A stretch of DNA of 31,430 bases. Origin: Elusimicrobiota bacterium. GTDB taxonomy: Bacteria; Elusimicrobiota; Elusimicrobia; UBA1565. Of the stretch, positions 1 through 24,929 are shown piece after piece. A program made the position numbers and the translations under genes. The notes beneath the pieces are model-generated. The model was not told the DNA's origin and ran no database searches. It was given only the letters and a program-made list of their open reading frames with translations. The first letter of the stretch is position 1, and every line of letters starts with the position of its first letter. The stretch is from the NCBI GenBank assembly GCA_043827405.1, contig JBDRPD010000101.1:1-31430 (forward strand). The letters run 5' to 3'.

Positions 1-1016
1 TCGGGGCTCAGGCTTCCCAGGGCCTGGTCCGCCTCGTCCATGTACTCCTGGCGCTTGGCCCAGTTGACGCCGCGGCCGGCGCTGGCATGGCTGATGCTGT
101 GATGCTTCGCGGCCGCCTCCCAGTTGAAGTCCGCCGGGGTGTCGTAGTCGTAGAAGTTGGAGGCTTCGCAGTTGTAGAAGTTGCCGTCCGCGCCCAGGAT
201 CAGCTGGGTGCAGTCCAGCCACCAGCGCTTGCCCTGCTTGAGGTATTCCGAGCGCTCGAGCCCGTCATGCAGGGTCCCGATATGGAACGGGCACTGGCCT
301 TCCGCTTCCGTGCGGCGCACGTAGTAATCGGCCAGCTGCTGGAAAAAGGCGGCGAGCTTTCCGAGCTCTTCCTTGGTCCAGTGGTGGTAGCAGTCGGGCT
401 CGAGGTTGACGAGCTTGATGCCGATCTCGGAGAAGGCCTCGAGCGCGTCGATGGTGCCGGCAAGGGTCGGCGGGCGCAGCGTCATATTGACGCCCAGCCC
501 GTCTTTGGGGAGATCTTTGATCTTGCCCATGACTGTTTCCCAGACCGAGTGGCTGCTGCCCGCGGGGAAGCAGCGAAACCGGTCGTTGTCCCCTTTATGT
601 CCGTCGAGGCTGATGAGGACCTCGGCGCCGTGCTCCTGGAACTTGCGAATCTGCTCGGGCTTGATCAAGGTGCCGTTGGTGTGGATCGAGAAGATCGGCT
701 TATTGGTGAAGCGCTCGGCGTACTGCACCGCCTTCTCCAGCAGGGGGTAGACGAGAAAGGTCTCGCCGCCCTGGATCGAGATGACCTTCTGTCCCGGGTA
801 AGGCGTCTGCTTGGGGTCCATGAAGATATCGATGGCGTTCTTGAAGTCCTCCCATTTGAGATGGACGGCCTTCTTGGCGACCTTGACCGTGGGCGCGCAG
901 CAATGCGTGCAGGCCAGGTTGCACTGGTTGGTGGCGAAGACGCACATGACGCGGATATAGTCGGGGCCGGTCTGCAGCTGGTTGTCGGCGGCTTCTTCAG
1001 TTTTTGCTTGGGTCAT
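1..1016 (-). CDS. Radical SAM enzyme with SPASM/twitch-like C-terminus, paralog 1 (3' end runs off the window)
   Basis: Absent from the ORF track because it has no stop in the window. Translated by hand from ATG at 1016 (AGGAGG RBS): MTQAKTEEAADNQLQTGPDYIRVMCVFATNQCNLACTHCCAP...IQGGETFL...HTNGTL...ISLDG...WWLDCTQLILGADGNFYNCE. Contains CxxxCxxC, GGE, TNG and SLDG motifs. Confidence 0.9.
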   Translation of the reverse strand, partial: MTQAKTEEAADNQLQTGPDYIRVMCVFATNQCNLACTHCCAPTVKVAKKAVHLKWEDFKNAIDIFMDPKQTPYPGQKVISIQGGETFLVYPLLEKAVQYAERFTNKPIFSIHTNGTLIKPEQIRKFQEHGAEVLISLDGHKGDNDRFRCFPAGSSHSVWETVMGKIKDLPKDGLGVNMTLRPPTLAGTIDALEAFSEIGIKLVNLEPDCYHHWTKEELGKLAAFFQQLADYYVRRTEAEGQCPFHIGTLHDGLERSEYLKQGKRWWLDCTQLILGADGNFYNCEASNFYDYDTPADFNWEAAAKHHSISHASAGRGVNWAKRQEYMDEADQALGSLSP

Positions 1017-1029
1017 GGGTGTTTCCTCC

Positions 1030-2280
1030 TCAGGAACCGGGAACGACATCGGCGAGGATATGTTCCTTGTTAAAGCTGGGATTATCCTGCAAGCGGGCGG
1101 CGAGCTTCATCAGCCCGCCATGAAGGATGCGGGAGGTCCGGTGCATATTGTCGACGAGGTCCTTGGGATCCTTGCCCTCGATATGGGCTACCGTGTAGTA
1201 GAGGCGGGGACACATATGCTGCCATTCGCTGTCCGGCTTGCCGTGTTCGCCGAGAACGGTATTGGCCTCTTCCATGTAGGCCTGGCGCTTGGCCCAGTCG
1301 ATGCCGCGGCCGGCGCTGCAGTGGTTGATGCTGTGCTTGCCGGCGACCTCGGACCAGGGGTAAAGGCCGATGGCCTCGCAGCTGTAGAAGTTGCCGTCGG
1401 AGCCCAGGATGAGGTGCACGCATTCGGTCCACCAGCCCTTGCCCGACTTGCGGGCCGCGACGCGCTGCAGCCCGTCATGAATCGCGCCGCAGCGAAAGGG
1501 GACTTTGCCGTGCTTTTCGGTGTAGCCGGCATAGAAGTCAAAGAGCTCGTCCATGAACTTCTCCAGCTTTTTGAGATCGGTCTCCGACCACATATGATAG
1601 TAGTCGATGGCGAGGTTGATGAAGCCGAAGCCCATCTCGGTGAGGGTTTTCAGCGCGCCCACCAGGCCCTCGATGCTGTTGGGGCGCACCACCATATTGA
1701 TGCCGAGGCCGTCTTTGGGGAGCGGCTCGATGCGCTTCATGACCGCGTCCCATACCGAGGTGTCGGCGGAGCCGGGGAAGCGCCGGAAATGATCATTGCC
1801 CTCTTTGTTCCCGTCCAGGCTGAACAGGATCTCGACGCCGTACTTGCGCAGCGCCTGGATTTGCTCGGGCTTCACCATGGTGCCGTTGGTGTGGATATAG
1901 ACATGCGGGGGGGTGGGGAACTTCTGCACGTACTCCACGGCCTGCTGCAGCAGGGGATAGACGAGGAAAGTCTCGCCGCCCTCGACGCAGATCACTTTCT
2001 GCCCCTGATGCGGCAGCTGCGCGGGGTCCATGAAGATGTCGATCGCGTTTTTGAAGTCCTCCCATTTCAAATGCTCGGGCGCCGCGTCCATCTTGACGGT
2101 ATCGGCGCAGCAGTTGGTGCAGGCAAGGTTGCACTGGTTGGTCACAAATACCGCCATGACCGCGACGTGGTCCGGTCCGGTCTGAATCTTAATAGGGCCG
2201 TCGGCGGCGGCTCGCGCCGCGGGGGCCTTGCCGGTTACTATCTTAACGGGTTTGGGACGTGCCTTGCTGGGATGCTGCAT
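1030..2280 (-). CDS. Radical SAM enzyme with SPASM/twitch-like C-terminus, paralog 2
   Basis: Motifs CNLACTNCC, EGGETFL, HTNGT, FSLDG, and C-terminal ECVHLILGSDGNFYSCE...WQHMCPRLYY. Start moved from 2325 to ATG 2280 (GAGGT RBS, 4 bp after the upstream stop). Confidence 0.9.
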   Translation of the reverse strand: MQHPSKARPKPVKIVTGKAPAARAAADGPIKIQTGPDHVAVMAVFVTNQCNLACTNCCADTVKMDAAPEHLKWEDFKNAIDIFMDPAQLPHQGQKVICVEGGETFLVYPLLQQAVEYVQKFPTPPHVYIHTNGTMVKPEQIQALRKYGVEILFSLDGNKEGNDHFRRFPGSADTSVWDAVMKRIEPLPKDGLGINMVVRPNSIEGLVGALKTLTEMGFGFINLAIDYYHMWSETDLKKLEKFMDELFDFYAGYTEKHGKVPFRCGAIHDGLQRVAARKSGKGWWTECVHLILGSDGNFYSCEAIGLYPWSEVAGKHSINHCSAGRGIDWAKRQAYMEEANTVLGEHGKPDSEWQHMCPRLYYTVAHIEGKDPKDLVDNMHRTSRILHGGLMKLAARLQDNPSFNKEHILADVVPGS

Positions 2281-2284
2281 AGCG

Positions 2285-3496
2285 TTACCTCTGGGTGATT
2301 GAAAGTTCCTGCGCGTCGCAGACATGCGGATAACGGCTCGACGTATAGTTGCGGATGAAATCGGGGTGCCGCCGCAGGCGCGTCGACAGCTTGACCAGCT
2401 CGGTAAAGAACAGCTCCGAGACGCGGTGCAGGTTGTCGATCAGCGGCGCAAGCTCGGCGCCCAGGCACTGCGCGACCGTATAGTACAGCCGAGGGCATAC
2501 ATGCTGCCAGGCGTCTTCGGCGCCCAGCTGCCGCAGCCGGCGGTAGGCGGCGTCCATATAGCTTTGCCGCTTGGCCCAATCGATGCCGCGGCCCGAACGG
2601 GCATGGTTGATCCCATGCGGCTCCAGCACCTTGGCGTAGGGAGCGCAGCCCATGGCTTCGCAGTCGTAGAAATTCCCGTCCGCTCCCAAAGTCAGCCGGA
2701 AGCAGTCCTTCCACCAGGCCCGGCTGCCGCGCCGGTTGGCGCCGACGAAGAGGGCATGCGCGAGCCCGCCGGTATAGAAAGGGATGCGGCCGTCGGCTTG
2801 CGTGCGCTCGACGTAGTAATCGGCGAAGTCCCGGCAGAAGCGCCGCAGCTGCTTGAGCTCGGCGGGCGTCCAGACATGAAGATAGTCGATCCATAGGTCG
2901 CAGAAGCGGAAGCCGAGCTTGCGAAAGCCTTCAAGTACCGGCAGCATGGTGTCCAGGTTGGCCGGCCGCAGTACGGAGTTTGTCCCGAGCCCGTCTTTCG
3001 GCGTATCCCGCAGCTTGTCCATTACGGTCTTCCAGGAGGACATCCTGCCGCCTTTGGCATAGGGACGGCACCGGTCATGCGCTTGGCGGCCGCCGTCGAT
3101 GCTGAAGACGATCCCGGCGTTGTGGGCGCGCAGTTCGCGAATCTGCTCAGGGCGGACCAAGGTCCCATTGGTGTGGATGTACAGGTGGGGACGTCGCGGG
3201 AAATGCCTGACGTACTTTGCGGCCTTGAGCAGCAGAGGGTAGACGAGAAACGGCTCGCCGCCGGCGATCGCTATTTCCTTGCGTGCGGCGGCCGGGGCTT
3301 GCGCGGGATCCATAAAAACGTCGATCGCCGCCTTGAAATCCTTCCACTGCAGATGTACCGCGCCCTTTGCTCCCTTGACGGTATCGACAAAGCAGCTGCG
3401 GCAGCCGCTATTGCACTGGTTGGTGACGTAGACGTCCATGACGTGGACATGCGGCGGACCGGTCTGTGTTCCGTTTCTGGATGCTCTTTTGGGCAT
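2285..3496 (-). CDS. Radical SAM enzyme with SPASM/twitch-like C-terminus, paralog 3
   Basis: Motifs CNSGCRSC, AGGEPFL, HTNGTL, FSIDG, and DCFRLTLGADGNFYDCE...WQHVCPRLYY. Colinear with the two downstream paralogs. Confidence 0.9.
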   Translation of the reverse strand: MPKRASRNGTQTGPPHVHVMDVYVTNQCNSGCRSCFVDTVKGAKGAVHLQWKDFKAAIDVFMDPAQAPAAARKEIAIAGGEPFLVYPLLLKAAKYVRHFPRRPHLYIHTNGTLVRPEQIRELRAHNAGIVFSIDGGRQAHDRCRPYAKGGRMSSWKTVMDKLRDTPKDGLGTNSVLRPANLDTMLPVLEGFRKLGFRFCDLWIDYLHVWTPAELKQLRRFCRDFADYYVERTQADGRIPFYTGGLAHALFVGANRRGSRAWWKDCFRLTLGADGNFYDCEAMGCAPYAKVLEPHGINHARSGRGIDWAKRQSYMDAAYRRLRQLGAEDAWQHVCPRLYYTVAQCLGAELAPLIDNLHRVSELFFTELVKLSTRLRRHPDFIRNYTSSRYPHVCDAQELSITQR

Positions 3497-3572: not shown

Positions 3573-3586
3573 TTGATAAATATCAA
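3573..3586. promoter_or_regulatory. Perfect FNR box TTGAT-AAAT-ATCAA
   Basis: Exact match to TTGAT-N4-ATCAA in an AT-rich gap upstream of 3496. It overlaps the stop codon of the HemN-like gene, and an FNR-type regulator is encoded in the cluster. Confidence 0.7.
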
Positions 3587-5085
3587 TCCTTGCGGCAGCG
3601 CTCGAATGTTGTCATCATGGCCGCTATCTGTTTGTCCGCAACCGGCAAAAAGGCGCGGATGTCCCGGTCGCTGTGGCGGCGGTTGAATGCCTGGAAATCC
3701 TTATGGTGCGCCGCCTTGAGCCGGCGGTGCAGCCGGGGGCTGTAGAGGCGTTTTGAAAAGACCAGTCTTTGCGCCCGGTCCGTTCCCGTAAAGGATACCG
3801 CCTCCCCGTTGGTGCGGATCAGGCCTTCTCGCTGGGCGGCATGCAGCGGGCGCGCCAGCGGCGTGTCGAGCACATCGCAACCGAACAGCCGGCGGAATTC
3901 ACCGCGCGGGATCGAGCCTTGGGCGTATAGGTGGCGCACCGCGAAACCGCGCATCTCCTCGGCCGGCGGCGACTCCATGCAGAAAAACGGGAGGGCGCGG
4001 TCCCAACGCCGCCGCGTTTCTTCGATCGGAGGATGACGGTACCAGGCGGCGCCGAAGGCATGCGACAGGGCGCCGGCGCCCAGTCCGAGGATCGAGGCGC
4101 CGTTTCTCCGCGCGACGCGGCACTGGGATGATATCGTTCTGAGATAGCCCGGGGACTCCGCTTGTCCCGACGGCGTGCGGTAGCCGTAGAGGCGCGCCAG
4201 GCGTTCCAGCGCGGGCAGCAGGCGGACTTTGCCTTCGCGGATGCGCGGAGACAGCGTTTGGCCCGCCTGCGCGAACGGCGTCTGCGGGCGCGGGTCGAAG
4301 CCGAAGAGGTAGACGGCGTCGAGACCCCGGCGCATAATGTCGTCGAGGTCGCGCAGAAAAGACCGCAGCGTCTGGCCCTCCAGGCCGAACATCAGCTCGA
4401 CTCCCGAGTAGACGCCCCGCGCGGCGGTGAGGCGGCGGAGCGCAGCGTTCACGGCGGCGCGCGTCTGGCCGCGGCGGTCGCTGCGCCGCAAGACCGCAGG
4501 ATCGAGGCTCTGTACGCCCAAAGTGATGCGGTTGACGCCGCGGCGCAGCAGCAGCTTCAGCTTGGACGCGGTCAGCGTTCCCGGGGAGGCTTCGACGTAG
4601 AGCTCCGCGTCCGGACGCAGCCGGAAGCTGCGGGATATATGGCCCAGAAGGTCGTCGAGCACCCCGTCCGGGGCCAAAGTCGGCGTGCCGCCGCCGAAGT
4701 ATACCGACGAGAACTCCACCTCGTGGAAAAGGCCGCGCAGGGCGTCGATTTCCCGGCGGATGCCGGCGGCGTAGTCCCGCATCTCGGCGCTGCCGCGCGC
4801 GGCTCCCATGCTGCAGAAGCAGAAGCGGCAGCGGCTGACGCAGAAAGGCCAGTGGACGTACAGGCCGATCTCGCGCGGCGCTTTTCCCGCGCGCATGAGC
4901 GCTGTGGTCCGGCGCCAAAAGTCCCTGATCTCCGCCAGGCCGCTGCGCCGGAAGTAGCCGCAGCTGGAGTAGTAGGTGCCGTCAGCCGGGAAGTACGGCT
5001 CGTGCTCGTCGTTGCACTTGGCCGTGAGGTACGTGCGCCAGCGCAGGTCGGCTATGCGGGCTGTCCGTTCCTTTGCAGTCGGCAT
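3583..5085 (-). CDS. HemN-like (coproporphyrinogen III oxidase family / class C) radical SAM enzyme, paralog 1
   Basis: Motifs GLYVHWPFCVSRCRFCFC, YFGGGTPT, EASP, NRITLGVQSLD and LMFGLEGQT. Start set at ATG 5085 rather than 5118. Confidence 0.88.
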   Translation of the reverse strand: MPTAKERTARIADLRWRTYLTAKCNDEHEPYFPADGTYYSSCGYFRRSGLAEIRDFWRRTTALMRAGKAPREIGLYVHWPFCVSRCRFCFCSMGAARGSAEMRDYAAGIRREIDALRGLFHEVEFSSVYFGGGTPTLAPDGVLDDLLGHISRSFRLRPDAELYVEASPGTLTASKLKLLLRRGVNRITLGVQSLDPAVLRRSDRRGQTRAAVNAALRRLTAARGVYSGVELMFGLEGQTLRSFLRDLDDIMRRGLDAVYLFGFDPRPQTPFAQAGQTLSPRIREGKVRLLPALERLARLYGYRTPSGQAESPGYLRTISSQCRVARRNGASILGLGAGALSHAFGAAWYRHPPIEETRRRWDRALPFFCMESPPAEEMRGFAVRHLYAQGSIPRGEFRRLFGCDVLDTPLARPLHAAQREGLIRTNGEAVSFTGTDRAQRLVFSKRLYSPRLHRRLKAAHHKDFQAFNRRHSDRDIRAFLPVADKQIAAMMTTFERCRKD

Positions 5086-6707
5086 ACGTTCTCGGATTCC
5101 ATGGCCCGGCTGAACCATTTGGGCTTCGCCGCGGCGGGACGATAGTACATGCGCATCATCGAGGCGACGCGCTTGTCGGCGACCGCTTCCAGGCTGCGCA
5201 CCTGCGCGTCGGTGAAGCGGCGGTTGAAGTCGCGGTACTTGGCGCGGTTGCCGCGCAACAGCGCCGAGGTCAATTTGGGGCTGAACAGGTGCTTGCAGTA
5301 GACCAGCCGTTCCGTCCGGTCCTTGCTCAGGAAACGAATATAGCCGCTGTCGATGCGCACCTTGCCGGCGGCGGCAAGGTCGGCCAGCGCCCGCTGCAGG
5401 GCCGCAACGGCCAGGGGGTCCTGTCCGAAAACGTTCTTAAAGCCGGGGCGCGATACTCTGCTCTGCGTATGCAGGTGGCGGATAACGAAGCCGCGCATCT
5501 CTTCGTTGAGGCTCGACTCCAGGGAGTAGAAAGGCGGCAGGCCGTTCCAGTCGCGCGGCGCGCCCTGCTGGCGGTTAGACGACGGCTGCACGAAAGCGGG
5601 ATGACCGTACCAGGCCGCGCCGAAGGCATGGGACAACGCGCTCATGCCGATGCCGAGAACCGACGCGCCCCATTTGCGCGCCATGCGGCACTGCCGGGTG
5701 ATCGCGGTGAGGTATTCCGGCTCCTCGGGGTCGAGCGGCGCGGGCCGGTAGCCGCAGCGCTGCGCGAGCCGGTCGAGTTCTTCGCTCATGCGCCACTGCC
5801 GCTCCCGCAGGCCGTCCGCCGGCCGGCGTCCGAGCTCGGAAAAGGCCGTCTGGACGCGCGGATCGAAGGCGTAGACGCGGAGGTTGCGCGGATGGGCCTT
5901 CAGCATGCCGATAAAATCACGGAGAAAAGAGTCATCGGACTGCCCGTCGAGCCCGTACATCAGGTCGGCGGCGCTGATCATGTCGGCATGGCGGGTCAGC
6001 AGGGCGGCGCTTTGCCGCACATTGTCCTGGTTCTGGCCGACGCGATTGGCTTTGTGCAGAATGAGGTTGTCGAGGCTCTGCACGCCCAAAGTGACATGGT
6101 TGACGCCGAGCGAGCGCATGCACTCCAGCTTCTCGGGCGTCAACGTGGCGGGGGAGGCCTCCATGTAGATTTCGGCGTCCCGCTCCAAACGGAAGCTGTC
6201 GCGGATCAGCTGAAACAGCTCCCGCAGCAGGTCCGACGGCATTAACGACGGCGTCCCCCCGCCCAGATAGATGGAGTGGAAATCGACCTCGGCGAAGACA
6301 TCGCGCAGGGCTTCCATTTCGCGCTTGAGCATCAGGTTGTAGCGGCGGAACTCGCCGCGGCTGCTGGTCAGGCACATGGCGCAGAAGCAGAAGGCGCAGC
6401 GGCTGAGACAAAACGGCCAGTGGATGTAGAGGCCGATCTCCCGCGGGGCTTTCCCCTGCCGGATCAGGCGGACCGTTTTTCGCCAGTAGCCGCGCACGTC
6501 CTCCAGGCCGGCGGGATGGAAGTAGCTGCGGTCCAGGTAGGCGCCCCCGTCGGTGGGGTAGTACGCCTCGTGCTCCTCGTGGCAGACCGCGGTCAGGAAG
6601 CTGTACTTGCGCAGCTCCTCCGCGGATATCGCGCGCGCCGCCCCTTTACGACGGGGCGGCGTGCTCGCCGACGCTCCGCTTACGGCTCCGCGCGCCGCCG
6701 TTACCAC
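5052..6707 (-). CDS. HemN-like radical SAM enzyme, paralog 2
   Basis: Motifs GLYIHWPFCLSRCAFCFC, YLGGGTPS, TLGVQSLD and DLMYGLDGQS. GTG start with a GGAGG RBS, overlapping the upstream stop. Confidence 0.88.
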   Translation of the reverse strand: MVTAARGAVSGASASTPPRRKGAARAISAEELRKYSFLTAVCHEEHEAYYPTDGGAYLDRSYFHPAGLEDVRGYWRKTVRLIRQGKAPREIGLYIHWPFCLSRCAFCFCAMCLTSSRGEFRRYNLMLKREMEALRDVFAEVDFHSIYLGGGTPSLMPSDLLRELFQLIRDSFRLERDAEIYMEASPATLTPEKLECMRSLGVNHVTLGVQSLDNLILHKANRVGQNQDNVRQSAALLTRHADMISAADLMYGLDGQSDDSFLRDFIGMLKAHPRNLRVYAFDPRVQTAFSELGRRPADGLRERQWRMSEELDRLAQRCGYRPAPLDPEEPEYLTAITRQCRMARKWGASVLGIGMSALSHAFGAAWYGHPAFVQPSSNRQQGAPRDWNGLPPFYSLESSLNEEMRGFVIRHLHTQSRVSRPGFKNVFGQDPLAVAALQRALADLAAAGKVRIDSGYIRFLSKDRTERLVYCKHLFSPKLTSALLRGNRAKYRDFNRRFTDAQVRSLEAVADKRVASMMRMYYRPAAAKPKWFSRAMESENVCRLQRNGQPA

Positions 6708-18251: not shown

Positions 18252-18343
18252 GTGTTTGCTGATGCGCGGTGAAGATGAAACGGAAAATCAGGCTGTTTTC
18301 GGCGCTGTTATCCCGAGCGGGCACGACGTCGGGCAGCCCCATG

Positions 18344-18349
18344 AGTTTA
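18344..18349 (-). promoter_or_regulatory. Putative -10 element (TAAACT) of the leftward operon
   Basis: TAAACT on the minus strand. It places the ATGAC-N4-GTCAT box at exactly -41.5. Confidence 0.5.
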
Positions 18350-18368
18350 TCCTTCCGGGTGTGTCGAG

Positions 18369-18410
18369 TCCATGACATATGTCATATTGAAATATGACCG
18401 TCGTCATGGA
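18369..18410. promoter_or_regulatory. Tandem Crp/Fnr-type operator: two ATGAC-N4-GTCAT boxes (18372-18385, 18394-18407) inside a 42-bp dyad
   Basis: Sequence TCCATGAC-atat-GTCATATT-ga-AATATGAC-cgtc-GTCATGGA. The boxes are 22 bp apart. Confidence 0.7.
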
Positions 18411-18429
18411 GTCGCTGCGGCCTTGGCAT

Positions 18430-18493
18430 GTGATCTAGAGCAGAAAATTATATGATAGATGTCAGAGTTTCGCGGAAAATCTTCTCCTATACT
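18430..18493 (+). promoter_or_regulatory. Putative rightward promoter: degenerate Crp/Fnr boxes at 18430-18443 and 18452-18465, plus -10 TATACT at 18488-18493
   Basis: GTGAT-ctag-AGCAG (within the CRP-like aTGTGATCTAGAgcaga) and ATGAT-agat-GTCAG are 22 bp apart. They centre at -63.5 and -41.5 relative to TATACT. Confidence 0.5.
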
Positions 18494-18502
18494 ATCAGAG
18501 TT

Positions 18503-19885
18503 ATGCCGGTAAAGGCAGCTAACAGCCGTAAGGCCCCCGCCGATCTGAATTTGGATCCAAAGCTGCAGGAAAGCGACGAGACGTTCTGGCAGCAGCAGGA
18601 GGGCCGCATGACCCGGCAGATCGGGCAGCCCTGCTGCACGCTCTCCGGCATGACGCATCTGCTCATCGAGATGCCCGGCAATTTCGCCGTCGTGCTGCAC
18701 TCCGAGCGCGACTGCGCGAACTGTTTTCTGAATACCCACGGGGTGTCCGGACGAAACTTCTACTCGGTCGGCATCACGCAGCCGCAGTTTTCGTCGGGGC
18801 GGATGGGCGAACCGCTGCGCCGCTGCCTCGAGCTGGTGATCCGCCACCGCAAGCCCGACGCGGTTTTCGTTTTGGGCAGCTGCCTCGTTGAGATGGTTTA
18901 CGATACGTTCGATATGGTCTGCGCGGAAACGGCGAAAACGACCGGGACGCCGGTCATCGCGCTGCGTACGAGCGGGCTCCGGCACGGTTCCCAGGCGGCG
19001 ATGGTGGATTGGCTCTACAGCACGCTCGCAGGGCTGGCCGCCAGCAGGACGAGCGCGGTTCCCGAAGGGAAAAAGGGCTTGTCCAAGCGCTTGAACCTGA
19101 TCGGGATGCCCCATCTCAACAGCGAGCCGGTCCGCCGCGAGCTGACGGGTTTTCTGCACGCAGCCGGGCTCGCGATTAACGGCGTCTATCCTTACGAGGC
19201 GGGCTTTGAGGATTGGCTGAAGGTGGGGCGCGCCTCGGCGAATGTCGTCGTCGACAGCTCGCTGTATCCCAAGCTGCTGGCGGCGCTGGGCGCATTGAAG
19301 ATGACGTCGGTTGAGGTGCCGCTGCCGGTGGGAATCGAATCGACCTCGCGCTTTTTTGCCGTGATCGGCAAGCAGTTCGGAGTCGCCAAAAGTCTGAGCG
19401 GCGCCTGCGCGGCGGCGGTGGAGACGGCACAGCGGCGCCTGGCGGCGTTTCGCAAGCGCTTTGGCGGGCTGAAGGTCGCCGTGGGCCTGCGCATGGTCAA
19501 CAACTACCGGGTGGATCAGCTCGCATACGACGGGCTGGGCGATATCGCCACCTTCGTCGAGGCGGGCTTCGAGGTCCGGCTGTTTATTCAGGGGCCGGGG
19601 GATCGGAAATCACGCCGGCATTTCGCCGACCGTCTCAAGCAGCTCGGCTGCGCGCTGCCGTTCGAGATATTCCCCGATCCCTACGATCTGCCGCCGCTGC
19701 TGCAGGCCGACCGGCCGGACGTGGCGTACCTGGCGGATCATGCCCGCTGGGAGACGACTAAAATCGGCATCCCGCTTATTCAGAGCCGTTCGCTCGAGCC
19801 GCTCTACAGCGGGGCGGTGCGCAATTTCGACTATTTCGACAAGGTTTTGACGCAGATCGGACGGAGCCGGAGGGGGAGGAGGTAG
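18503..19885 (+). CDS. Nitrogenase component 1-like alpha subunit (NifD/NifE/BchN/CfbD-like) with three cluster Cys
   Basis: Motifs QPCCTLSG, LHSERDCAN, LGSCLVEMVYD, LNLIG and LPVGIESTSRF. Start set at ATG 18503 because the ORF-track start at 18452 lies inside the predicted promoter. Confidence 0.82.
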   Translation: MPVKAANSRKAPADLNLDPKLQESDETFWQQQEGRMTRQIGQPCCTLSGMTHLLIEMPGNFAVVLHSERDCANCFLNTHGVSGRNFYSVGITQPQFSSGRMGEPLRRCLELVIRHRKPDAVFVLGSCLVEMVYDTFDMVCAETAKTTGTPVIALRTSGLRHGSQAAMVDWLYSTLAGLAASRTSAVPEGKKGLSKRLNLIGMPHLNSEPVRRELTGFLHAAGLAINGVYPYEAGFEDWLKVGRASANVVVDSSLYPKLLAALGALKMTSVEVPLPVGIESTSRFFAVIGKQFGVAKSLSGACAAAVETAQRRLAAFRKRFGGLKVAVGLRMVNNYRVDQLAYDGLGDIATFVEAGFEVRLFIQGPGDRKSRRHFADRLKQLGCALPFEIFPDPYDLPPLLQADRPDVAYLADHARWETTKIGIPLIQSRSLEPLYSGAVRNFDYFDKVLTQIGRSRRGRR

Positions 19886-19889
19886 AAAG

Positions 19890-20990
19890 ATGAGATGCGG
19901 GTTGATGATCGTTTTGTGCGGCGGGTTGCTGGCGCCGGCGGCGGCGGAGAAGCCGGCCGGCCTGACGGACGCGCAGCAGGCGCGCTACGTGACGGCGGGT
20001 GAGTTCCTCATCGCGGACAAGTTCGAAGCGGAGCGTTTTGCGCGCATCCTCGCCGATCTGCCGGCGCTTAAGAAAGAGGATTCCGCGCTGTACCGGGATA
20101 TCCGCTCGGCGCTCAAGAAGCGGACGGGGGACAAGGCCAAGCCGCTGCTGGATTACTTCGAGCGCTACGTCGACGATCCCTGTATTCGCGACGAGGTCGG
20201 CCGCTCGCATGACGATGAAAACTTCGACTACTTCTACCAGCGGACCGTCGCGGGGGAGATCGAGCTGAAGGCGGTATGCAAGGACATCAAAAAGGGACGC
20301 AACGAGGAAGCGGCGAAGCCGCTCGATGCGATGATCAAGCGTGTTCCGATGAACACGGTCGCTTACCTGCACCGGGCGATCGTGCGCCTGCGGTCCGGCG
20401 ATGCGGCGGGAGCGGGCGGCGATTATCGCGAGGCGCTGAAGACCCCGGTGGGGAAGACGGAGGCGTCCGCCAGTTGTCTGTGCTGCAAGTCCTTGGCTCC
20501 CGACCTGGCGCAGTTGCAGGAGCGCCGCGCTCTGAGCGAGGCCGCGAAGAAAGCGGGGACTTCGCTGTTTATCGACGGCAATGCCGCCGGCGCGCTCGCC
20601 AAGTTCGATGAGGCGCTGCGGCATGATCCGGGCGACCCGGAAGCTTTCGTGAGCCGCGCGGTCGCGCGGCAGAAGACCGGCGGCGAGCCGGCGCTGGCGG
20701 TCGCGGATTACCACGCGGCGTCCAAGTTCGCGGTCGCGGCGGGACGCTGGGACCTCGCGGCGGACGCGCTGCTCAGCAGCGCGCAGGTGAGCGGCGTCGA
20801 TGAAAAGGCGGTGCTGCCGGTAACCGTCGCCAGGATCGAGGAGATGATCGTGATGACAACTCCCGAATGGCAGGAGAAGCTGGCTAAGGAGCTGCAAACT
20901 CTGCGGCCGCGCTTGCAGAAAATCCTGCCGCCGCCCGCCGAGAAGAAGCCCGCGCCGGGGATAGAACCGGAGGGAAAAAAGGCGCCGTGA
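19890..20990 (+). CDS. TPR-repeat protein with a predicted N-terminal signal peptide
   Basis: Signal-like N-terminus MRCGLMIVLCGGLLAPAAA|EK. TPR patterns AYLHRAIVRLRSGDAAGAGGDYREAL and ALAKFDEALRHDPGDPEAFVSRAVA. GGAGGAGG RBS. Confidence 0.75.
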   Translation: MRCGLMIVLCGGLLAPAAAEKPAGLTDAQQARYVTAGEFLIADKFEAERFARILADLPALKKEDSALYRDIRSALKKRTGDKAKPLLDYFERYVDDPCIRDEVGRSHDDENFDYFYQRTVAGEIELKAVCKDIKKGRNEEAAKPLDAMIKRVPMNTVAYLHRAIVRLRSGDAAGAGGDYREALKTPVGKTEASASCLCCKSLAPDLAQLQERRALSEAAKKAGTSLFIDGNAAGALAKFDEALRHDPGDPEAFVSRAVARQKTGGEPALAVADYHAASKFAVAAGRWDLAADALLSSAQVSGVDEKAVLPVTVARIEEMIVMTTPEWQEKLAKELQTLRPRLQKILPPPAEKKPAPGIEPEGKKAP

Positions 20991-22333
20991 GCGCGCAGCG
21001 GACCGTCGACCAAGAGCTGGCTGAGCTTGAGGGTTTCGCCCTCAAGACGCACGCGTATTGCCGTTTGACGGGGGCGAGCTTGGCGATGCATGCCATTCCG
21101 GACGCCTTCCTTGTGCTGCATGTGGGCGTGGGCTGCAAATATAAGGGCGCGGGACAGTTTACCCTGCACGATCTCGCCCGCGTGGCGCATCACCGGGAAA
21201 ACTATACCGAAGTCAACGACCGCGCCTTGATCCAGGGCTCGGGCGACCGGGTCGGAATCTACGTGCGCAACTTCTACCGCAAGCGCCGGCCGCGGTTTAT
21301 GGCGGTGGCGACGATGACGTTTCTCGAGATGACCGGCGAGGACTTCGGCCGCGCCGTGCGGGACGCGGCCAAGACCGTGCCGTGTCCGGTCGCTTATGTG
21401 CCGACGCCCGGGTTCGAGGGCGACCTGTACGCGGGCTACGCCGCCGTTATTCGCGAGGTGCTCAAGCTCGTGCCGTTTAAGAAGACCAAGCCGGTGCGCG
21501 GGCGGATCGGGATCATCGGCTATCCGTTCGACCGCTACGAGATGGACCATGCCGGCAATCTGCAGCAGCTGCGCCATCTCCTGGAATCGATCGGGCTCGA
21601 GCCGGGCCCGGTGTTTTTGAGCGGACGTCCCATGGCCGAGCTGCTGCGGGCGGGCAGCTGCGAGAAGTTCGTTGTTTTCCCATATATGCGGCCGGGGCTC
21701 GACGAACTCAAAGATCTCGTCGGCGGGCGTCCTCTGATCGCGACCGATATCCCCGTCGGCGTGTCCGGGACCTTTCGCTGGCTGCATGACGTCGGCCGCG
21801 CTTGCGGCGTCGGCCGGGGCGTGCTGGAGAAGGCTTTACGGACGCAGAAGGATTATGCGCGTCCGCAGCTGGATATGTTCCGCAACTACATCGGCCACCG
21901 GATCGGGAGCGCGCGGGCCGCGATATTCGCCGCTACCCCGCTGGCGGCCGGTCTGACGGCGCTGACCTCCGAGCTGGGTATGAACCCCCTGCTGGTCGGG
22001 CTGCGGGACCGGGATCTGGGGGGACGGGCGGCATTTGCCGAGGCGGTCGGCCGGACCGGAGTGCGTCCGCCCGTCGACCTGGATGTCGTGGAGACCCCGA
22101 GCCTGGACCTCACGTGCAGGAAGGTGCAGGCGCTGCGCGATGCGGGCCGGCTGTCGGTCCTGTTTTCATCCTCTGCGGAAAAGAACTGCGTCGCCGCCGG
22201 CGGAGGCTCGCTGCCGCCGCATATCGAGATCGGCTTTCCGTCGCAGTCGTACCATGTGCTGTATCCGGAGCCATTTTACGGTATCGGCGGAAGTCTCGTG
22301 CTGGCTCAACGGATAATGAACTCTGTGCGTTAG
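20987..22333 (+). CDS. Nitrogenase component 1-like beta subunit (NifK/NifN-like)
   Basis: Motifs YCRLTGASLAMHAIPDAFLVLHVGVGC, TEVNDRALIQG, EMTGEDF, PTPGFEGDLYAGY and IEIGFPS...PFYG. GTGA overlap. Confidence 0.85.
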   Translation: MSAQRTVDQELAELEGFALKTHAYCRLTGASLAMHAIPDAFLVLHVGVGCKYKGAGQFTLHDLARVAHHRENYTEVNDRALIQGSGDRVGIYVRNFYRKRRPRFMAVATMTFLEMTGEDFGRAVRDAAKTVPCPVAYVPTPGFEGDLYAGYAAVIREVLKLVPFKKTKPVRGRIGIIGYPFDRYEMDHAGNLQQLRHLLESIGLEPGPVFLSGRPMAELLRAGSCEKFVVFPYMRPGLDELKDLVGGRPLIATDIPVGVSGTFRWLHDVGRACGVGRGVLEKALRTQKDYARPQLDMFRNYIGHRIGSARAAIFAATPLAAGLTALTSELGMNPLLVGLRDRDLGGRAAFAEAVGRTGVRPPVDLDVVETPSLDLTCRKVQALRDAGRLSVLFSSSAEKNCVAAGGGSLPPHIEIGFPSQSYHVLYPEPFYGIGGSLVLAQRIMNSVR

Positions 22334-22345: not shown

Positions 22346-23116
22346 ATGAATCCGGGATATCATCGATCGACCATGAAACGGAAGGGCTTGGGACTCGCCG
22401 ATCCGCGGGTCTACTGCAAGGGCTGTCCGGTGCTGCAGACCGGATTTTTCGGCGCCCTCAACAGCGAGTCCAAAGCGGCCCTGACCTGCATGATGGAGTA
22501 CGGGCATTATATCCCGCGCCAGATCCTCTACCAGGAGGGAAATCCGGCGACCCGAATTTACGCGGTCAAGACCGGCTATGTGAAGACGTACCGGACGCAT
22601 CCGCTGGGCAAGCACCAGGTGATTCAGATCGCGAAGGGCGGAGATGTTCTGAACCTTGAGAGCGTGCACGGCCGGCAGTGCACCGTTACGGCGGAGGTCC
22701 TGACCAATTCCGAGATATGCTTTCTCGAGGTGCGTCAGCTGATGGAGCGCGCCAAGCGCAGCGGCGCGCTCGCGATGGAGATCATTCAAATCCTGGCGGC
22801 GGCGATCGTGGATTCGCAGCAGCGCATTCTTGATTTCGGCACGCTGGACGCCAAGGCGCGCTTCGCCGGCTTTCTGCTGGATATGCTGCCGGAAGAGGCC
22901 GTCGCCGCGGCGGCGAGCGGCGGCCCGCGGCGCGGCGGGAAGGAGGCGGGTTTTCGCCTGCCTTTGACGCGCCATGAGATCGCGGATTTGATCGGCGTGC
23001 GCCTGGAGACGATTTCCCGGCTGTTCCAGCTGTTCAAGGAAAAGAAGATTATCGCGGCGGATTGCCGGCAGGTGCGGGTGCTGAATGCCGGCAAGCTGGC
23101 CGAATTGGCGAAGTAG
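22346..23116 (+). CDS. Crp/Fnr family transcriptional regulator, FNR-like
   Basis: N-terminal CKGC, a cNMP-like domain (LYQEGNPATRIYAVKTGYVK), AEVLTNSEICF, and HTH LTRHEIADLIGVRLETISR. The start could be 22373. Confidence 0.9.
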   Translation: MNPGYHRSTMKRKGLGLADPRVYCKGCPVLQTGFFGALNSESKAALTCMMEYGHYIPRQILYQEGNPATRIYAVKTGYVKTYRTHPLGKHQVIQIAKGGDVLNLESVHGRQCTVTAEVLTNSEICFLEVRQLMERAKRSGALAMEIIQILAAAIVDSQQRILDFGTLDAKARFAGFLLDMLPEEAVAAAASGGPRRGGKEAGFRLPLTRHEIADLIGVRLETISRLFQLFKEKKIIAADCRQVRVLNAGKLAELAK

Positions 23117-23131
23117 CTGTCCGGAGGTTTT

Positions 23132-23524
23132 ATGAATAACGACAGGCAGGAAGAGCGCAGGGAACATGGTGCGGCGGCCGAGCCGGGCGACTGCGGTCAC
23201 CGGTCCGAAAGGCGGCCGGGTCCGGATGGAACCCCGCGGCCGCACTACGACGGCCCCCGCACCACGGAAGAGTACCTGGTGCGCGAATGGCAGGTCGCTT
23301 ACGAGCGCGCCTGCGGCGAGCTTCGCGTCGAGATCCTCAAGGAGAAGCTGCGTAAGACCTGGGGCAAGAGCCTGGAGAAGGTCGCCGGAGAGGTCGACCG
23401 CCTGATGTGGAAGGACTGGGAGCTAAGCCGGAAGGACGGCGATCATTGCGCGGAGCGGGAGGCTCTCGTCAAAGAGCTCGCCAAGAAGATCATGGATTCT
23501 TATGCGCAGGGTCCGCGCCGTTAG
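23132..23524 (+). CDS. Hypothetical protein (130 aa; disordered N-terminus, helical C-terminus)
   Basis: GGAGG RBS. Fills the gap between the regulator and the CoA-transferase. No family recognised. Confidence 0.65.
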   Translation: MNNDRQEERREHGAAAEPGDCGHRSERRPGPDGTPRPHYDGPRTTEEYLVREWQVAYERACGELRVEILKEKLRKTWGKSLEKVAGEVDRLMWKDWELSRKDGDHCAEREALVKELAKKIMDSYAQGPRR

Positions 23525-23552
23525 GCGCCCCGGCGCCGGCATAGGGAGGAGC

Positions 23553-24929
23553 ATGAAGTCCGCGACAACGCTGGAAGCCGCCGTTAACTCCAAGATCATC
23601 CCTCCGGGCAGCCGCATCTACTGCAGCGGCAACGCGGCGACGCCGCAGAAGCTGCTGGGCCGGCTGGCCGGCGACGAGTCCATCCGCGATGTCGATTTGT
23701 ACTGCGTCCTGCCGCTCGGCGAGCAGGATGTCATGCGGAAGGTATTCGGGGATGCGGCTTGCTCGCGCATCAACTACCGCATTATCTTCAACAGCGGCTT
23801 CACGCGTGAGGCCGTCAACGCGGGCAAGGCGAAGTATCAGCTGTGGCATCTCTCGCAGACGCCGCGCCAGATCCGGCGCTACGTCAAACCCAATGTTGTC
23901 CTGCTGCAGGTCAGCGGGCCGGACTACGGCGGAAATTACAGCCTCGGGACCACGGTGGAGGCCGTGCTGGCCGCGATCCATACCGCCAAGGAGACCGGAG
24001 GCATCGTTATCGCCGAGCGCAACCTGCGGATGCCCTTTGTGCTGGGGCCGACGGTGCCGGAGCATATGATCGATTATTTTATTGACGTCGACTATCCGCT
24101 TCCGGCCAGCCCGGCAGCGCCGATAGATGATACGGCGCAGCGCATCGCGCGCATCATCACCCGCCTGTATATCGAGGACGGCTCCACGCTCCAGTTCGGG
24201 ATCGGCGGGGTTCCCGAGGCCGTCGCCGACGCTATAATTGAGAAAGGCGTCAAGGACCTCGGCATCCATACCGAAGTGCTCGCTTCCGCGATGATCAAGC
24301 TGATCCGCCGGGGGATCGTCACCAACAAGAAAAACCGGCGCAAGGGCGACGACTTCTCGATCGGCACGGTATTTCTCGCGGATTCCAAAGAGGATTACGA
24401 CTGGCTGCACTTCAACAGCAGCGTGCAGGGACGCGCCAGCAACTACACCAACAGCATCCTGGTTATAGCTCAGCAGCCCAATATGGTCGCCATAAATTCC
24501 GCCATCGGCGTCGATCTGGCGGGCAATATTTGGGCCGATTCCATGACCGGCCGGCAGATCTACAGCGGTATCGGCGGACAGGCCGATTTTATCCGTGCCG
24601 CGCCCTATTCCGAGGGCGGCCGCGCCGTGATCGCGCTTAAGGCGACGACGGGGAAAGGCGTGTCCAAGATCGTTGATATGTGCCCGGAAGGGATTACCAC
24701 GACGGCGATCCCCGCCGATCAGGTGATCCTGGTGTCCGAGTACGGCGCCTTCGAGCCCTTCGGTTTGAGCGTCGGTGAGAAGGCCGTGGGAATCGCCCAT
24801 TTGGCCGCTCCCGAGTTCCGGGACGAGCTGCTCGGCAAGATCTACAGCAATCCGGCTTTCCACGACCCCAAAAGCGCCAATATTAGCGGCCGGCCCAAGG
24901 GGTTCACGCCCTACGACAAAGCGGGGTAG
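23553..24929 (+). CDS. Acetyl-CoA hydrolase/transferase family protein (4-hydroxybutyrate CoA-transferase-like)
   Basis: Motifs GSTLQFGIGGVPEAV, DLGIHTE (catalytic Glu), INSAIGVDLAG and SGIGGQADFIRAA..SEGG. Start at ATG 23553 with a GGAGGAG RBS. Confidence 0.9.
   Translation: MKSATTLEAAVNSKIIPPGSRIYCSGNAATPQKLLGRLAGDESIRDVDLYCVLPLGEQDVMRKVFGDAACSRINYRIIFNSGFTREAVNAGKAKYQLWHLSQTPRQIRRYVKPNVVLLQVSGPDYGGNYSLGTTVEAVLAAIHTAKETGGIVIAERNLRMPFVLGPTVPEHMIDYFIDVDYPLPASPAAPIDDTAQRIARIITRLYIEDGSTLQFGIGGVPEAVADAIIEKGVKDLGIHTEVLASAMIKLIRRGIVTNKKNRRKGDDFSIGTVFLADSKEDYDWLHFNSSVQGRASNYTNSILVIAQQPNMVAINSAIGVDLAGNIWADSMTGRQIYSGIGGQADFIRAAPYSEGGRAVIALKATTGKGVSKIVDMCPEGITTTAIPADQVILVSEYGAFEPFGLSVGEKAVGIAHLAAPEFRDELLGKIYSNPAFHDPKSANISGRPKGFTPYDKAG

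Follow-up and report, generated by a model that had tools for sequence, protein, structure and literature searches.

A Group VI nitrogenase-like and radical SAM gene cluster of a groundwater Elusimicrobiota genome, with a possible His-Xaa-Ser peptide substrate

We found that the window, which is the whole of contig C101 (31.4 kb) of an Elusimicrobiota MAG, carries a non-nitrogen-fixing gene cluster of the Group VI nitrogenase-like (NFL) kind already described by Meheust et al. 2020, as the initial annotation had correctly stated. The function of Group VI is still called unknown in a July 2026 review (Chem Rev 2026), in keeping with the statement in that annotation that no product was established. 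We tentatively propose, as something close to an even prospect, that the window holds much of a Group VI NFL and radical SAM (rSAM) pathway of an anaerobic groundwater Elusimicrobiota bacterium, a pathway which fixes no N2 and has the peptide HxsA4 as its substrate.

Gene content of the window

Two divergent operons hold three NifH-type domains, seven D/K-like domains, six rSAM enzymes and a Crp/FNR regulator, as identified by Pfam and NCBIfam scans (Table 1). Each of these counts, the three rSAM classes and the divergent layout with its own FNR-type regulator had been given in the initial annotation and were upheld. The same is true of the lack of nifB, nifX, bch/chl and cfb genes, since every NifB, NifX, Bch/Chl and Cfb model stayed below its cut-off in the window (NCBIfam scan). 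At the right end of the extent of 1..24929 assigned to the cluster, the 130-aa ORF and the CoA-transferase, for which none of the related loci mapped holds a homologue, are probably neighbours of the system and not members. Because the left end of the contig truncates the first rSAM gene, the cluster on C101 is incomplete.

Table 1. Features of the window (positions on contig C101)
Feature	Position	Strand	Evidence or remark
rSAM A, SPASM/twitch peptide-maturase-like, C-terminus cut	3..1049	-	PF04055 53.8 bits, PF13353
rSAM B, SPASM/twitch type, paralogue of A and C	1030..2325	-	PF04055
rSAM C, SPASM/twitch type, paralogue of A and B	2285..3496	-	PF04055, PF13353
Predicted FNR/FixK-type palindrome TTGATAAATATCAA	3573..3586		centre ~84 bases upstream of rSAM C start
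HemN-like rSAM 1	3583..5118	-	PF04055 68.5 bits
HemN-like rSAM 2	5052..6707	-	Pfam and NCBIfam scans
B12-binding rSAM, methyltransferase-like	6701..8239	-	PF02310, PF04055
DK1, K-type component-1-like subunit	8236..9639	-	PF00148 145 bits
HD1, NifH::D-type fusion, 790 aa	9636..12008	-	PF00142 272 bits; PF00148 103 bits (C-terminal half)
H2, stand-alone NifH-type reductase, 282 aa	12005..12853	-	PF00142 247 bits
DK3, K-type subunit	12855..14156 (first called to 14447)	-	PF00148 132 bits
DK4, unfused D-type subunit	14149..15909	-	PF00148 89 bits
HD2, NifH::D-type fusion, 793 aa	15870..18251	-	PF00142 261 bits; PF00148 108 bits (C-terminal half)
Divergent promoter region	18252..18451		perfect 14-base palindrome ATGACATATGTCAT at 18373-18386
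DK6, divergent D-like subunit	18452..19885	+	PF00148 95.9 bits
TPR-repeat protein	19890..20990	+	TPR_16, TPR_11 below gathering scores
DK7, divergent K-type subunit	20987..22333	+	PF00148 152 bits
Crp/FNR-family transcription regulator	22346..23116	+	cNMP_binding, HTH_Crp_2, Crp domains
130-aa ORF	23132-23524	+	no family found
CoA-transferase	23502-24929	+	AcetylCoA_hyd_C 135 bits

Two of the three NifH-type domains are fused to D-like domains. HD1 consists of an ATPase/[4Fe-4S] domain (residues 15-290), a flexible linker (~292-356) and a D-type domain (358-790), and its AF2 model is confident for both domains, with pLDDT <50 in the linker. The fusion is conserved, with both domains present in 117 of the 120 best homologues among the matches listed, and neither the Walker A motif nor either of the cluster Cys residues varies across the 16 fusions aligned. 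HD2 is the first gene in the minus-strand operon, and in a 70-row tree the H domains of HD2 and HD1 form a sister pair (support 96); H2, in which the motifs GKGGIGKST, GCAGRG and VVCGGF are seen, clusters in this tree with stand-alone H proteins from other Elusimicrobiota (support 96). DK1, which presumably partners the D domain in the HD1 fusion upstream, matches DK3 and the K gene of contig C74 at 256-332 bits. Homologue alignments to DK3 as first called begin only at residue ~108, and GGAGGA precedes ATG 14156, which is most likely the start codon rather than 14447. DK4 scores 196-223 bits against other D-type domains and DK7 89-127 bits against the K-type group. DK6 reaches at most 53 bits against any other D/K domain in the genome, and, with the window's own genome counted, 6 of 33 NFL-bearing genomes yielded orthologues (best G316, 56%, and G367, 54%). 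TPR proteins recur in 8 of 12 related loci scanned; in G316 and G367, no TPR gene separates the orthologues of DK6 and DK7. One Cys is kept in all nine D/K domains of the genome, and a second, within an xTCxPxxIGDD motif, by the D-type domains only.

The rSAM enzymes comprise three SPASM/twitch, two HemN-like and one B12-binding type. All three SPASM-type proteins match peptide maturases best (63-95 bits), with AhbC, AhbD and NirJ1 at 28.6-46.5 bits. The best NCBIfam match of rSAM A is the PapB family (93.9 bits, cut-off 340), and its HxsB score is 66.8 bits (cut-off 370); rSAM B reaches 95 bits for PapB and rSAM C 67 bits for a Nif11-like peptide maturase, each below cut-off, and B and C share ~50% identity across the C-terminal 120 residues. 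HemN-like rSAM 1 matches the STM4012 family (145.7 bits), ChuW/HutW (131.8) and HemN (106), all below cut-offs, and the B12-binding rSAM matches the KedN5 family at 143.7 bits (cut-off 700). A synteny comparison had been suggested in the initial annotation; in most related loci mapped, rSAM genes do adjoin reductase genes, with counter-examples such as an isolated H::D gene in G367.

The regulator scores 85.7 bits against the Fnr subfamily (cut-off 228) and has Cys residues at positions 24, 27, 48, 112, 125 and 240, including an N-terminal CxxC. The palindrome that precedes the SPASM genes is the window's only zero-mismatch match to TTGAT-N4-ATCAA, which we take to be the FNR/FixK-type consensus, and the palindrome in the divergent promoter region is a putative regulator site. 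Given the CxxC and the exact box, the anoxic setting assumed in the initial annotation is plausible as a mode of control of the window genes.

His-Xaa-Ser genes beside nitrogenase-like genes

New here is a second NFL/rSAM locus in the same genome, a single plus-strand gene array on contig C74. Its operon is headed by a true His-Xaa-Ser (Hxs) set of HxsD (62.7 bits, cut-off 50), HxsB (512, cut-off 370) and an HxsA4 precursor (59.5, cut-off 55) with a (Ser-His-Gly)n tail, followed by rSAMs of HemN-like and HxsC-like type, genes for a TPR and a membrane protein, and a D/K pair. No H-x-S repeat ORF (six-frame scan) and no HxsB or HxsC-like gene (NCBIfam scan) was found in the window, nor any join between C74 and the window's cut end, and the Hxs link is drawn from another contig of a MAG and from relatives, not from the window. 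HxsA is reportedly modified by E. coli HxsB/HxsC (Nat Commun 2026, PMC13128918). No paper combining "nitrogenase" and "His-Xaa-Ser" was found in the literature searched.

HxsB is encoded in 32 of the 34 NFL-bearing genomes among 401 Elusimicrobiota genomes searched (in 12, on the same contig and within 17.5 kb of NFL genes) and, in a second phylum, in 20 of 20 NFL-positive Polyangia genomes versus 85 of 301 overall, counts that include related, non-independent genomes. Since HxsB is common irrespective of NFL genes in families f1 (7/9), f3 (34/48) and f5 (43/47), co-occurrence at the genome level is weak evidence there. At the level of loci, a six-frame scan found HxsA-type precursors in 12 Elusimicrobiota genomes, in eight of them as part of an uninterrupted same-strand run with D/K or H::D genes. 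Among the Polyangia, genes for HxsC-like, H, D, K, HxsD, HxsB and HxsA proteins lie on the same strand in G495, and, in Elusimicrobiota, on contig C19 of G367 a CysRich-HxsD-HxsB-HxsA4 core is co-directional with a homologue of HemN-like rSAM 2 (45% identity), in a cluster that also has homologues of the B12-binding rSAM (37-40%). In G620, 430 kb of a 7-Mb contig separates the H::D gene from the Hxs locus. Together, the NFL/rSAM loci with Hxs sets in C74, other Elusimicrobiota and Polyangia make a ribosomal peptide a serious rival to a tetrapyrrole as the substrate.

Possible chemistry and competing explanations

These loci suggest that the substrate of the NFL enzymes may be a small peptide with His-x-Ser repeats instead of a tetrapyrrole. 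In such a pathway, the three NifH-type domains would bind and hydrolyse ATP, and their [4Fe-4S] clusters would hand low-potential electrons to D/K-type partners, two of these domains being tethered to a D-type catalytic domain through a presumably floppy linker of ~65 residues. With conserved cluster cysteines down to two (D) and one (K), the partners would fit a simple [4Fe-4S]-type cluster, not the P-cluster/FeMo-co pair. Four or five different D/K sets could carry out successive hard reductions, the six rSAM enzymes would put cross-links or one-carbon groups onto the same substrate, and the Crp/FNR regulator would turn the genes on without oxygen. As substrate we tentatively favour the (Ser-His-Gly)n tail of HxsA4, which C74 encodes in an operon that also holds another D/K pair, and the reductases may reduce unsaturated or heteroaromatic groups that rSAM enzymes have built on it. 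A point against a peptide is that the nitrogenase-family enzymes listed in Chem Rev 2026 all use small molecules.

The published proposal, which we consider doubtful, is a tetrapyrrole pathway in which NFL sets reduce porphyrinoid double bonds, like DPOR, COR and CfbCD, and the HemN-like, B12-dependent and SPASM rSAMs decarboxylate, methylate or remodel side chains to give an uncharacterised cofactor. The HemN-like and B12-rSAM families do have tetrapyrrole enzymes among their members, but the rSAM classes of the window are found in peptide pathways too. This genome encodes HemB and HemC, and one C74 rSAM bears a HemN_C domain; among the NFL-bearing genomes, HemB is present in 18 of 19 from families f1 and f3, and in this genome too, and a TP_methylase gene lies inside one related operon (L122:5600-6370, 47.5 bits), two observations that also count against a peptide. 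Group VI was placed beside tetrapyrrole-reducing groups, with HemN_C and B12 domains noted, by Meheust et al. 2020, and a supported split (98) unites Group VI-like rows with BchL in our 70-row tree. On the other hand, no HemB match was found in 11 of 13 NFL-bearing f5 genomes, 4 of these 11 being rated 100% complete, and, the L122 methylase excepted, no chelatase, uroporphyrinogen or sirohaem genes were found in the window or among 103 unassigned neighbour proteins. A tetrapyrrole would also leave the recurrent operon link to HxsD-HxsB-HxsA4 unaccounted for. The tetrapyrrole scaffold of the initial annotation was an analogy, not a finding. Here and in many relatives, this gene kit shares an operon with a His-Xaa-Ser precursor and its maturases. 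Its idea of several ATP-driven reductions and radical chemistry on one scaffold may nevertheless hold, given the Hxs operon link and the missing HemB in f5, with a peptide as that scaffold.

It is also conceivable, though on balance unlikely, that the NFL proteins have another role in the same pathway: the D/K proteins, as NifEN-like scaffolds or reductases, would handle a metal cluster or small molecule which the peptide subsequently uses or has attached to it; alternatively, the NifH domains would chiefly feed low-potential electrons to the many rSAM enzymes. NifE is among the best, though weak, matches to the D-type domains (1.2e-8, PDB sequences; 40-56 bits, NCBIfam), ~16 rSAM genes lie in the window and C74 loci together, and a Nature 2025 paper mentions disagreement over whether Group VI proteins contain an active-site cluster. 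However, four or five D/K sets would be needless for electron supply alone, neither NifB nor other cluster-assembly genes were found (models in the window; nifB genome-wide), and the conserved Cys count suits a simple cluster.

Comparison with nitrogenase and related reductases

A working nitrogenase or alternative N2-fixing system is exceedingly improbable. The likeness is one of family, through PF00142 and PF00148 domains, whereas scores against nifH, nifD, nifK, nifE and nifN models are all far below cut-off, TIGR01290 (nifB) has no match anywhere in the 98%-complete genome, and the nitrogenase P-cluster Cys set is incomplete in the window's D/K domains. The NifH domains score 256-275 bits against the nifH model (cut-off 394), 253-274 against CfbC (402), 188-202 against BchL (345) and 158-168 against BchX (331). 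The comparison with Nif, Bch and Cfb proteins that the initial annotation had called for places them, in the 70-row tree, outside both the BchL clade (support 100) and the group of NifH, CfbC and other NFL sequences (support 98). No Nif, BchL, BchX or CfbC model or clade tested accommodates the cluster. Instead, the NifH domains group with Elusimicrobia sequences that include GWA2_69_24 and RBG_16_66_12, and the cluster is a further example of the Group VI gene clusters from groundwater Elusimicrobia.

Gene content of the window and its Group VI affiliation

The window is a complete contig of 31,430 bases. The genome that contains it (G000) comprises 108 contigs and 4.33 Mb at 63% G+C, and is rated 98% complete. 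A hand-picked gene set for the window was identical to the set returned by a simple third-position G+C gene caller, and Pfam and NCBIfam searches resolved it into a minus-strand operon that runs from 18251 down to the contig end and a divergent plus-strand operon (table). The same searches bore out the counts of the initial annotation, namely three NifH domains, seven D/K-like domains, six radical SAM (rSAM) genes in three classes, and a regulator of FNR type. The last two genes within its range for the cluster, 1..24929, are without counterpart in the related loci mapped. At up to two mismatches, the window contains 14 matches to TTGAT-N4-ATCAA, compared with a shuffled mean of 4.4, and the divergent promoter carries a perfect 14-base palindrome (18373-18386). 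The Crp/FNR regulator has an N-terminal CxxC but reaches only 85.7 bits on the Fnr model (cut-off 228). These sequence features suggest that the cluster may be under oxygen control. Two short metatranscriptome contigs are identical to window positions 8008-8161 (B12-binding rSAM gene) and 18588-18779 (DK6); their RNA library comes from the study to which the probable source sample also belongs, and they give a weak hint of transcription, with DNA carry-over possible.

Features of the window, of the second contig C74 and of related loci; the minus-strand operon of the window is in transcription order
Feature	Coordinates	Strand	Remarks
HD2, NifH::D fusion	window 15870-18251	-	minus-strand operon
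DK4		-	D-type
DK3	start probably at window 14156	-	K-type
H2, stand-alone NifH	window 12005-12853	-	
HD1, NifH::D fusion	window 9636-12008	-	
DK1		-	K-type
B12-binding rSAM		-	
Two HemN-like rSAMs		-	
Three paralogous SPASM/twitch-type rSAMs		-	last cut by contig end
Exact TTGAT-N4-ATCAA box	window 3573-3586		sole exact match in the window; just upstream of three SPASM genes
DK6, TPR protein, DK7, Crp/FNR regulator		+	divergent operon
955-aa protein	window 26673-29540	-	C-terminal 380 residues, Alginate_exp outer-membrane barrel (215 bits); N-terminal 550 residues without family match
NarL/LuxR-type response regulator	window 29792-30445		right end of the window; no evident tie to the cluster
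Spermidine-synthase-like gene	window 30453-31184		PRK03612 119 bits (cut-off 472); no evident tie to the cluster
C74: two Cys-rich coiled-coil proteins	L117:201-1343, L117:1340-2467	+	partial third at C74 start
C74: HxsD		+	62.7 bits (cut-off 50)
C74: HxsB		+	512 bits (cut-off 370)
C74: HxsA4 precursor, 102 aa		+	NF038313 59.5 bits (cut-off 55); Lys-rich leader, (Ser-His-Gly)n tail
C74: short rSAM, then three HemN-like rSAMs		+	
C74: four HxsC-like rSAMs		+	HxsC 61-96 bits (cut-off 268); HxsC4 72-127 bits (cut-off 500)
C74: HemN_C-rSAM protein, 704-aa TPR protein, polytopic membrane protein		+	
C74: D/K pair, another HemN-like gene		+	
H-x-S repeat ORF, 803 aa	L145:3880-6291		genome G295, contig C45
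Lone H::D fusion, 979 aa	L171:1-2940		genome G620 (Polyangia), 7-Mb contig
TP_methylase	L122:5600-6370		genome G264, contig C25; 47.5 bits

The NifH domains of the window fell below the cut-offs of the nifH (256-275 bits versus 394), CfbC (253-274 versus 402), BchL (188-202 versus 345) and BchX (158-168 versus 331) models. GKGGIGKST and both [4Fe-4S] cysteines are invariant in 16 fusion proteins and are also present in the stand-alone H2. A search with HD1 returned 698 relatives at E <= 1e-3 among proteins of 434-1383 residues, and 117 of the best 120 carry both PF00142 and PF00148. The named relatives among these best 120 are nearly all Elusimicrobia, plus one Pseudenhygromyxa isolate, and include GWA2_69_24 (55% identity), RBG_16_66_12 and RIFCSPLOWO2_12_FULL_59_9.

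References for a NifH tree were drawn from a wide contig scan with the fusion alignment (NifH motifs), which listed mostly canonical NifH, BchL and CfbC loci. From 80 NifH-like genes of named genomes, labelled by NCBIfam cut-offs, 46 served as references (18 NifH, 3 CfbC, 9 BchL and 16 that reach no cut-off); another two rows, from Elusimicrobia, are Group VI-like, and the 32 left out are nearly all redundant NifH or BchL. In the resulting quick IQ-TREE maximum-likelihood tree of 70 rows, the H domains of HD1 and HD2 form a sister pair (support 96) that falls with GWA2_69_24 (support 99), and H2 groups with stand-alone H proteins of other Elusimicrobiota, including RBG_16_66_12 (support 96). 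A split with a support of 98 places Group VI-like rows together with BchL, apart from NifH, CfbC and other nitrogenase-like (NFL) proteins, and the BchL clade (support 100) excludes the window domains. Group VI-like rows as a whole are not monophyletic (three changes). The NifH domains of the window therefore lie outside the Nif/CfbC and BchL groups, in keeping with the initial annotation, in a tree whose labelled references include no BchX, MarH or isethionate-reductase rows. This placement matches the wording 'sibling to group V' for Group VI in the preprint text of Meheust et al. (10.1101/765248). The nifB model (TIGR01290) had no match in the 98%-complete genome. Together, we conclude that the locus is a further member of the Group VI NFL kind.

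The D/K domains were similarly divergent: across the Nif and Bch component-1 models of NCBIfam, none exceeded about 56 bits. In the window, scores reached at most 33 bits on nifD (cut-off 654) and on nifK (cut-off 427), 51.5 on BchB (490), 47 on BchN (420) and 27.5 on BchZ (529). By pairwise score, the nine D/K domains of the genome separate into a D-type group (the D domains of HD1 and HD2, DK4 and the D gene of contig C74; 196-475 bits mutually) and a K-type group (256-332 bits among DK1, DK3 and the K gene of C74, 89-127 bits for DK7), with DK6 as an outlier at no more than 53 bits against any other. Gene adjacency suggests the pairs HD1/DK1, DK4/DK3, DK6/DK7 and the C74 pair; HD2 is without a K gene of its own. 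The cysteine of an HxxxxC-type motif is kept in all nine domains, and that of xTCxPxxIGDD in the four D-type domains and DK6; it is absent from the K-type, two of whose four members (DK1 and DK3) have a cysteine shifted two positions on. We take these two cysteines to be equivalent to NifD Cys62 and Cys154. With three conserved cysteines per D/K pair, a cluster of [4Fe-4S] type would be expected rather than a P-cluster, as judged from an alignment that has no NifD row from which to place FeMo-co ligands.

The AlphaFold2 model of HD1 (mean pLDDT 78) consists of two confident domains, residues 15-290 and 358-790, joined by a low-confidence linker (residues 292-356), an arrangement that tethers the reductase to its catalytic partner. 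In a Foldseek search of this model against the PDB, the best 50 matches were all nitrogenase Fe proteins, which swamped the D domain. A lone fusion is found in the Polyangia genome G620, where the 40 kb mapped around it revealed no K-type gene and, as sole rSAM, a HemN-like gene about 11.5 kb off; a K partner may therefore be dispensable for some Group VI fusions.

A His-Xaa-Ser locus associated with the nitrogenase-like genes

Translated searches with the window proteins uncovered a second NFL/rSAM locus in the same genome, on the 23.9-kb contig C74 (L117, 1-12000, and L118, 12001-23925). It is one plus-strand array with about ten rSAM genes and a D/K pair without a NifH of its own, and it encodes His-Xaa-Ser (Hxs) proteins: the repeat precursor HxsA4, the maturase HxsB, HxsC-like rSAMs and HxsD. 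For HxsA/B/C/D, the models (TIGR03976-03979) are reportedly those of Haft and Basu (2011). The Cys-rich tandem paralogues of C74 (about 375 residues, no Pfam family) begin with a hydrophobic segment, continue through a Cys-rich middle and end in a Glu/Arg-rich coiled coil; homologues occur in L142, L167 and L168, and in four genomes HxsD has such paralogues directly upstream. For the membrane protein, homologues reached the Peptidase_A24 cut-off in three of six cases, with one weak match and nothing in two, including the G000 copy. Complex prediction for HxsA4 and the D and K proteins of C74 scored 0.01 against a mark of 0.32, a score that speaks neither for nor against binding. The gaps of two related loci held no convincing precursor-like small ORFs. 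No overlap was found between the ends of the window and those of C74, whose first bases belong to the last part of a third Cys-rich paralogue and not to the missing rSAM C-terminus. No public contig was found that extends the window leftward, the sole spanning record being approximately the same contig.

Among 401 sampled Elusimicrobiota genomes, D-domain matches at E <= 1e-10 were found in 34 (1 of 9 in family f1, plus G000; 18 of 48 in f3; 13 of 47 in f5) and HxsB over its cut-off in 88. HxsB is present in 32 of the 34 NFL-positive genomes; the exceptions are G150, where the cluster runs to the contig end, and G034, with weak hits (24% identity). This genome-level count says little because HxsB is common in NFL-negative genomes of those families, and related genomes are not independent samples. 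For at least 12 of the 32, a D-domain hit has an HxsB hit 1.5-17.5 kb away on the same contig. HxsD-HxsB-HxsA4 are contiguous and co-directional with D/K or H::D genes in G000, G266, G188, G264, G112, G178, G218 and G084, in arrays that also carry HxsC-like rSAMs and the membrane protein, and gene maps place the trio near NFL genes in G054, G295 and G312. In the 2.2-Mb genome G188, HxsD-HxsB-HxsA4 open a single minus-strand array, about 35 kb long, which contains the only H, D and K genes found there. In G295, the H-x-S repeat lies inside a called ORF, with a putative precursor start, and a second reading frame of the same DNA encodes a long Arg/Leu/Ala repeat; because of such repeat DNA, assemblies may break near H-x-S genes.

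The closest mapped relative, G367, has one contig (C8) syntenic with window 12005-22333. On another (C19), homologues of the second HemN-like rSAM (45%) and of the B12-binding rSAM (37-40%) are co-directional with a Cys-rich gene, HxsD, HxsB and HxsA4. This gene order ties window-type genes to the Hxs core, and would be consistent with C74 following the cut end of the window. In a second phylum (class Polyangia), the fusion protein of Pseudenhygromyxa has strong matches in 20 of 301 sampled genomes. HxsB is present in 85 of the 301 overall and in all 20 NFL-positive genomes, 19 of them over the cut-off. In G495, HxsC-like genes, H, D, K, HxsD, HxsB and HxsA are all on one strand, and in G416, G460 and G403 HxsB lies 7-15 kb from NFL genes.

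Candidate substrates

The general idea of the initial annotation, in which a single scaffold undergoes several ATP-driven reductions together with radical chemistry under anoxia, is reasonable. We put the prospect that the scaffold is a His-Xaa-Ser peptide at close to even. The wider proposal, which we advance tentatively and somewhat short of even, is that Group VI reductases would be the first nitrogenase-family members to act on a ribosomal peptide. The rSAM battery would build heteroaromatic or unsaturated structures from the His and Ser residues of the (Ser-His-Gly)n tail, ATP-driven, low-potential electrons would reduce these structures, and the product would be a cofactor, a metal binder or an exported effector made from the peptide. 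The window and C74 would be halves of one co-directional supercluster of about 55 kb.

A tetrapyrrole scaffold, which appears to be the only published hypothesis for Group VI and is founded on analogy, is in our estimate unlikely, if still worth weighing. HemB and HemC are present in G000, HemB is found in 20 of 33 other NFL-bearing genomes (18 of 19 in families f1 and f3), and the TP_methylase gene of G264 lies inside a Group VI operon, between rSAM and TPR genes. Yet HemB is found in just 2 of 13 NFL-bearing f5 genomes, 4 of the 11 without a match being rated 100% complete; among 103 unassigned neighbour proteins from 12 loci there is no chelatase and, save that TP_methylase, no tetrapyrrole enzyme, and 8 of the 12 loci contain TPR proteins. 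That the NFL genes have another role is distinctly unlikely. Counting against the Hxs link are the lone H::D gene of G620, 430 kb from an Hxs locus, and one H::D gene of G367 that is also solitary. The possibility that the two gene sets are mere neighbours in a defence island was set aside, the genes being contiguous and co-directional on C74 and in eight other genomes. Nitrogenase proper (Nif/Vnf/Anf) was rejected, with nifH, nifD and nifK all below curated scores and no NifB in the genome, and nitrogen fixation by the locus is extremely improbable.

G000 and its relatives offer a clonable candidate substrate, a roughly 100-residue peptide that ends in a (Ser-His-Gly)n tail and shares its operons with the reductases. 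If the link is functional, nitrogenase-type ATP-driven reduction would extend to peptide chemistry and would be tied to His-Xaa-Ser systems; one such system has recently been shown to keep phage DNA from entering (PMC13128918), and an antiphage role of the C74-type locus would be putative. If it is not functional, the locus is one more example of a known, unexplained cluster.

Comparison with known systems

The Chem Rev 2026 review, in its section on the subject, presents Group VI as the one nitrogenase-family branch without a named substrate or cofactor, and the accessible texts of the Meheust preprint, Chem Rev 2026 and Nature 2025 treat its function as unknown, with a tetrapyrrole proposed from context. 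Our literature search found no functional study on Group VI with radical SAM, or on NflH/NflD. The window shares with Group VI of Meheust et al. the phylum, the habitat type (groundwater), NifH-like domains with Walker A and two cluster cysteines, several highly divergent D/K copies without NifB, and many adjoining rSAM genes, B12-binding and HemN-like among them; its proteins are directly homologous to those of genomes named there (GWA2_69_24, 55%). The NifH::D fusion is not mentioned in the main text of the preprint or in section 7 of the review, although supplementary gene maps (Figure S6) may show it; the words 'fused' and 'fusion' are absent from the review's accessible text and never applied to NifH-D in that of the preprint. 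Neither the recurrent TPR proteins nor the His-Xaa-Ser link was found in these two texts, supplements aside.

CfbCD and DPOR/COR (BchLNB, BchXYZ) combine an ATP-driven NifH-type reductase with a D/K-type component and a simple Fe-S cluster, without FeMo-co, and by analogy serve as our working model for how the window enzymes might act. Unlike these systems, the window encodes several sets of paralogues, in two of which the reductase is part of a fusion protein. CfbCD is the Ni-sirohydrochlorin a,c-diamide reductive cyclase and uses a single homodimeric CfbD as partner, whereas the window has distinct D-type and K-type partners and misses the CfbC cut-off. It likewise fails the BchL, BchX, BchN, BchB and BchZ cut-offs, and its NifH domains lie outside the BchL clade. 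Methylthio-alkane and isethionate reductases (Group IV-C and IV-F) resemble the window as non-N2 nitrogenase relatives used under anoxia, and the isethionate reductase system also works with a radical SAM enzyme, according to the accessible text of PMC11423573; Pfam and NCBIfam recognised no sulfur-metabolism genes in the window. The best solved relatives, 9fmg (E 4e-11) and 9d9u (1.6e-8), are remote and titled only 'Nitrogenase'.

The HXS system of E. coli is reported to be an antiphage system (Li et al., Nat Commun 2026, PMC13128918) in which HxsB and HxsC mature HxsA, with N-terminal processing and a change of +8 Da in an H-x-S repeat. The word nitrogenase is absent from that text, and a full-text literature search found no paper uniting 'nitrogenase' with 'His-Xaa-Ser'. 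The window itself has none of the Hxs genes; a six-frame scan found no H-x-S repeat protein in it, and its SPASM rSAMs reach 46-67 bits on HxsB (cut-off 370). C74 and many relatives, by contrast, have HxsD, HxsB and an H-x-S protein above NCBIfam cut-offs, with HxsC-like rSAMs alongside. The C74 precursor is of the small HxsA4 type (about 100 residues), matched only by the HxsA4 and HxsA3 models and with no peptidoglycan-binding domain recognised, and the C74-type version carries, as additions, at least ten extra rSAMs, nitrogenase-like reductases, TPR proteins and a membrane protein resembling prepilin peptidases.
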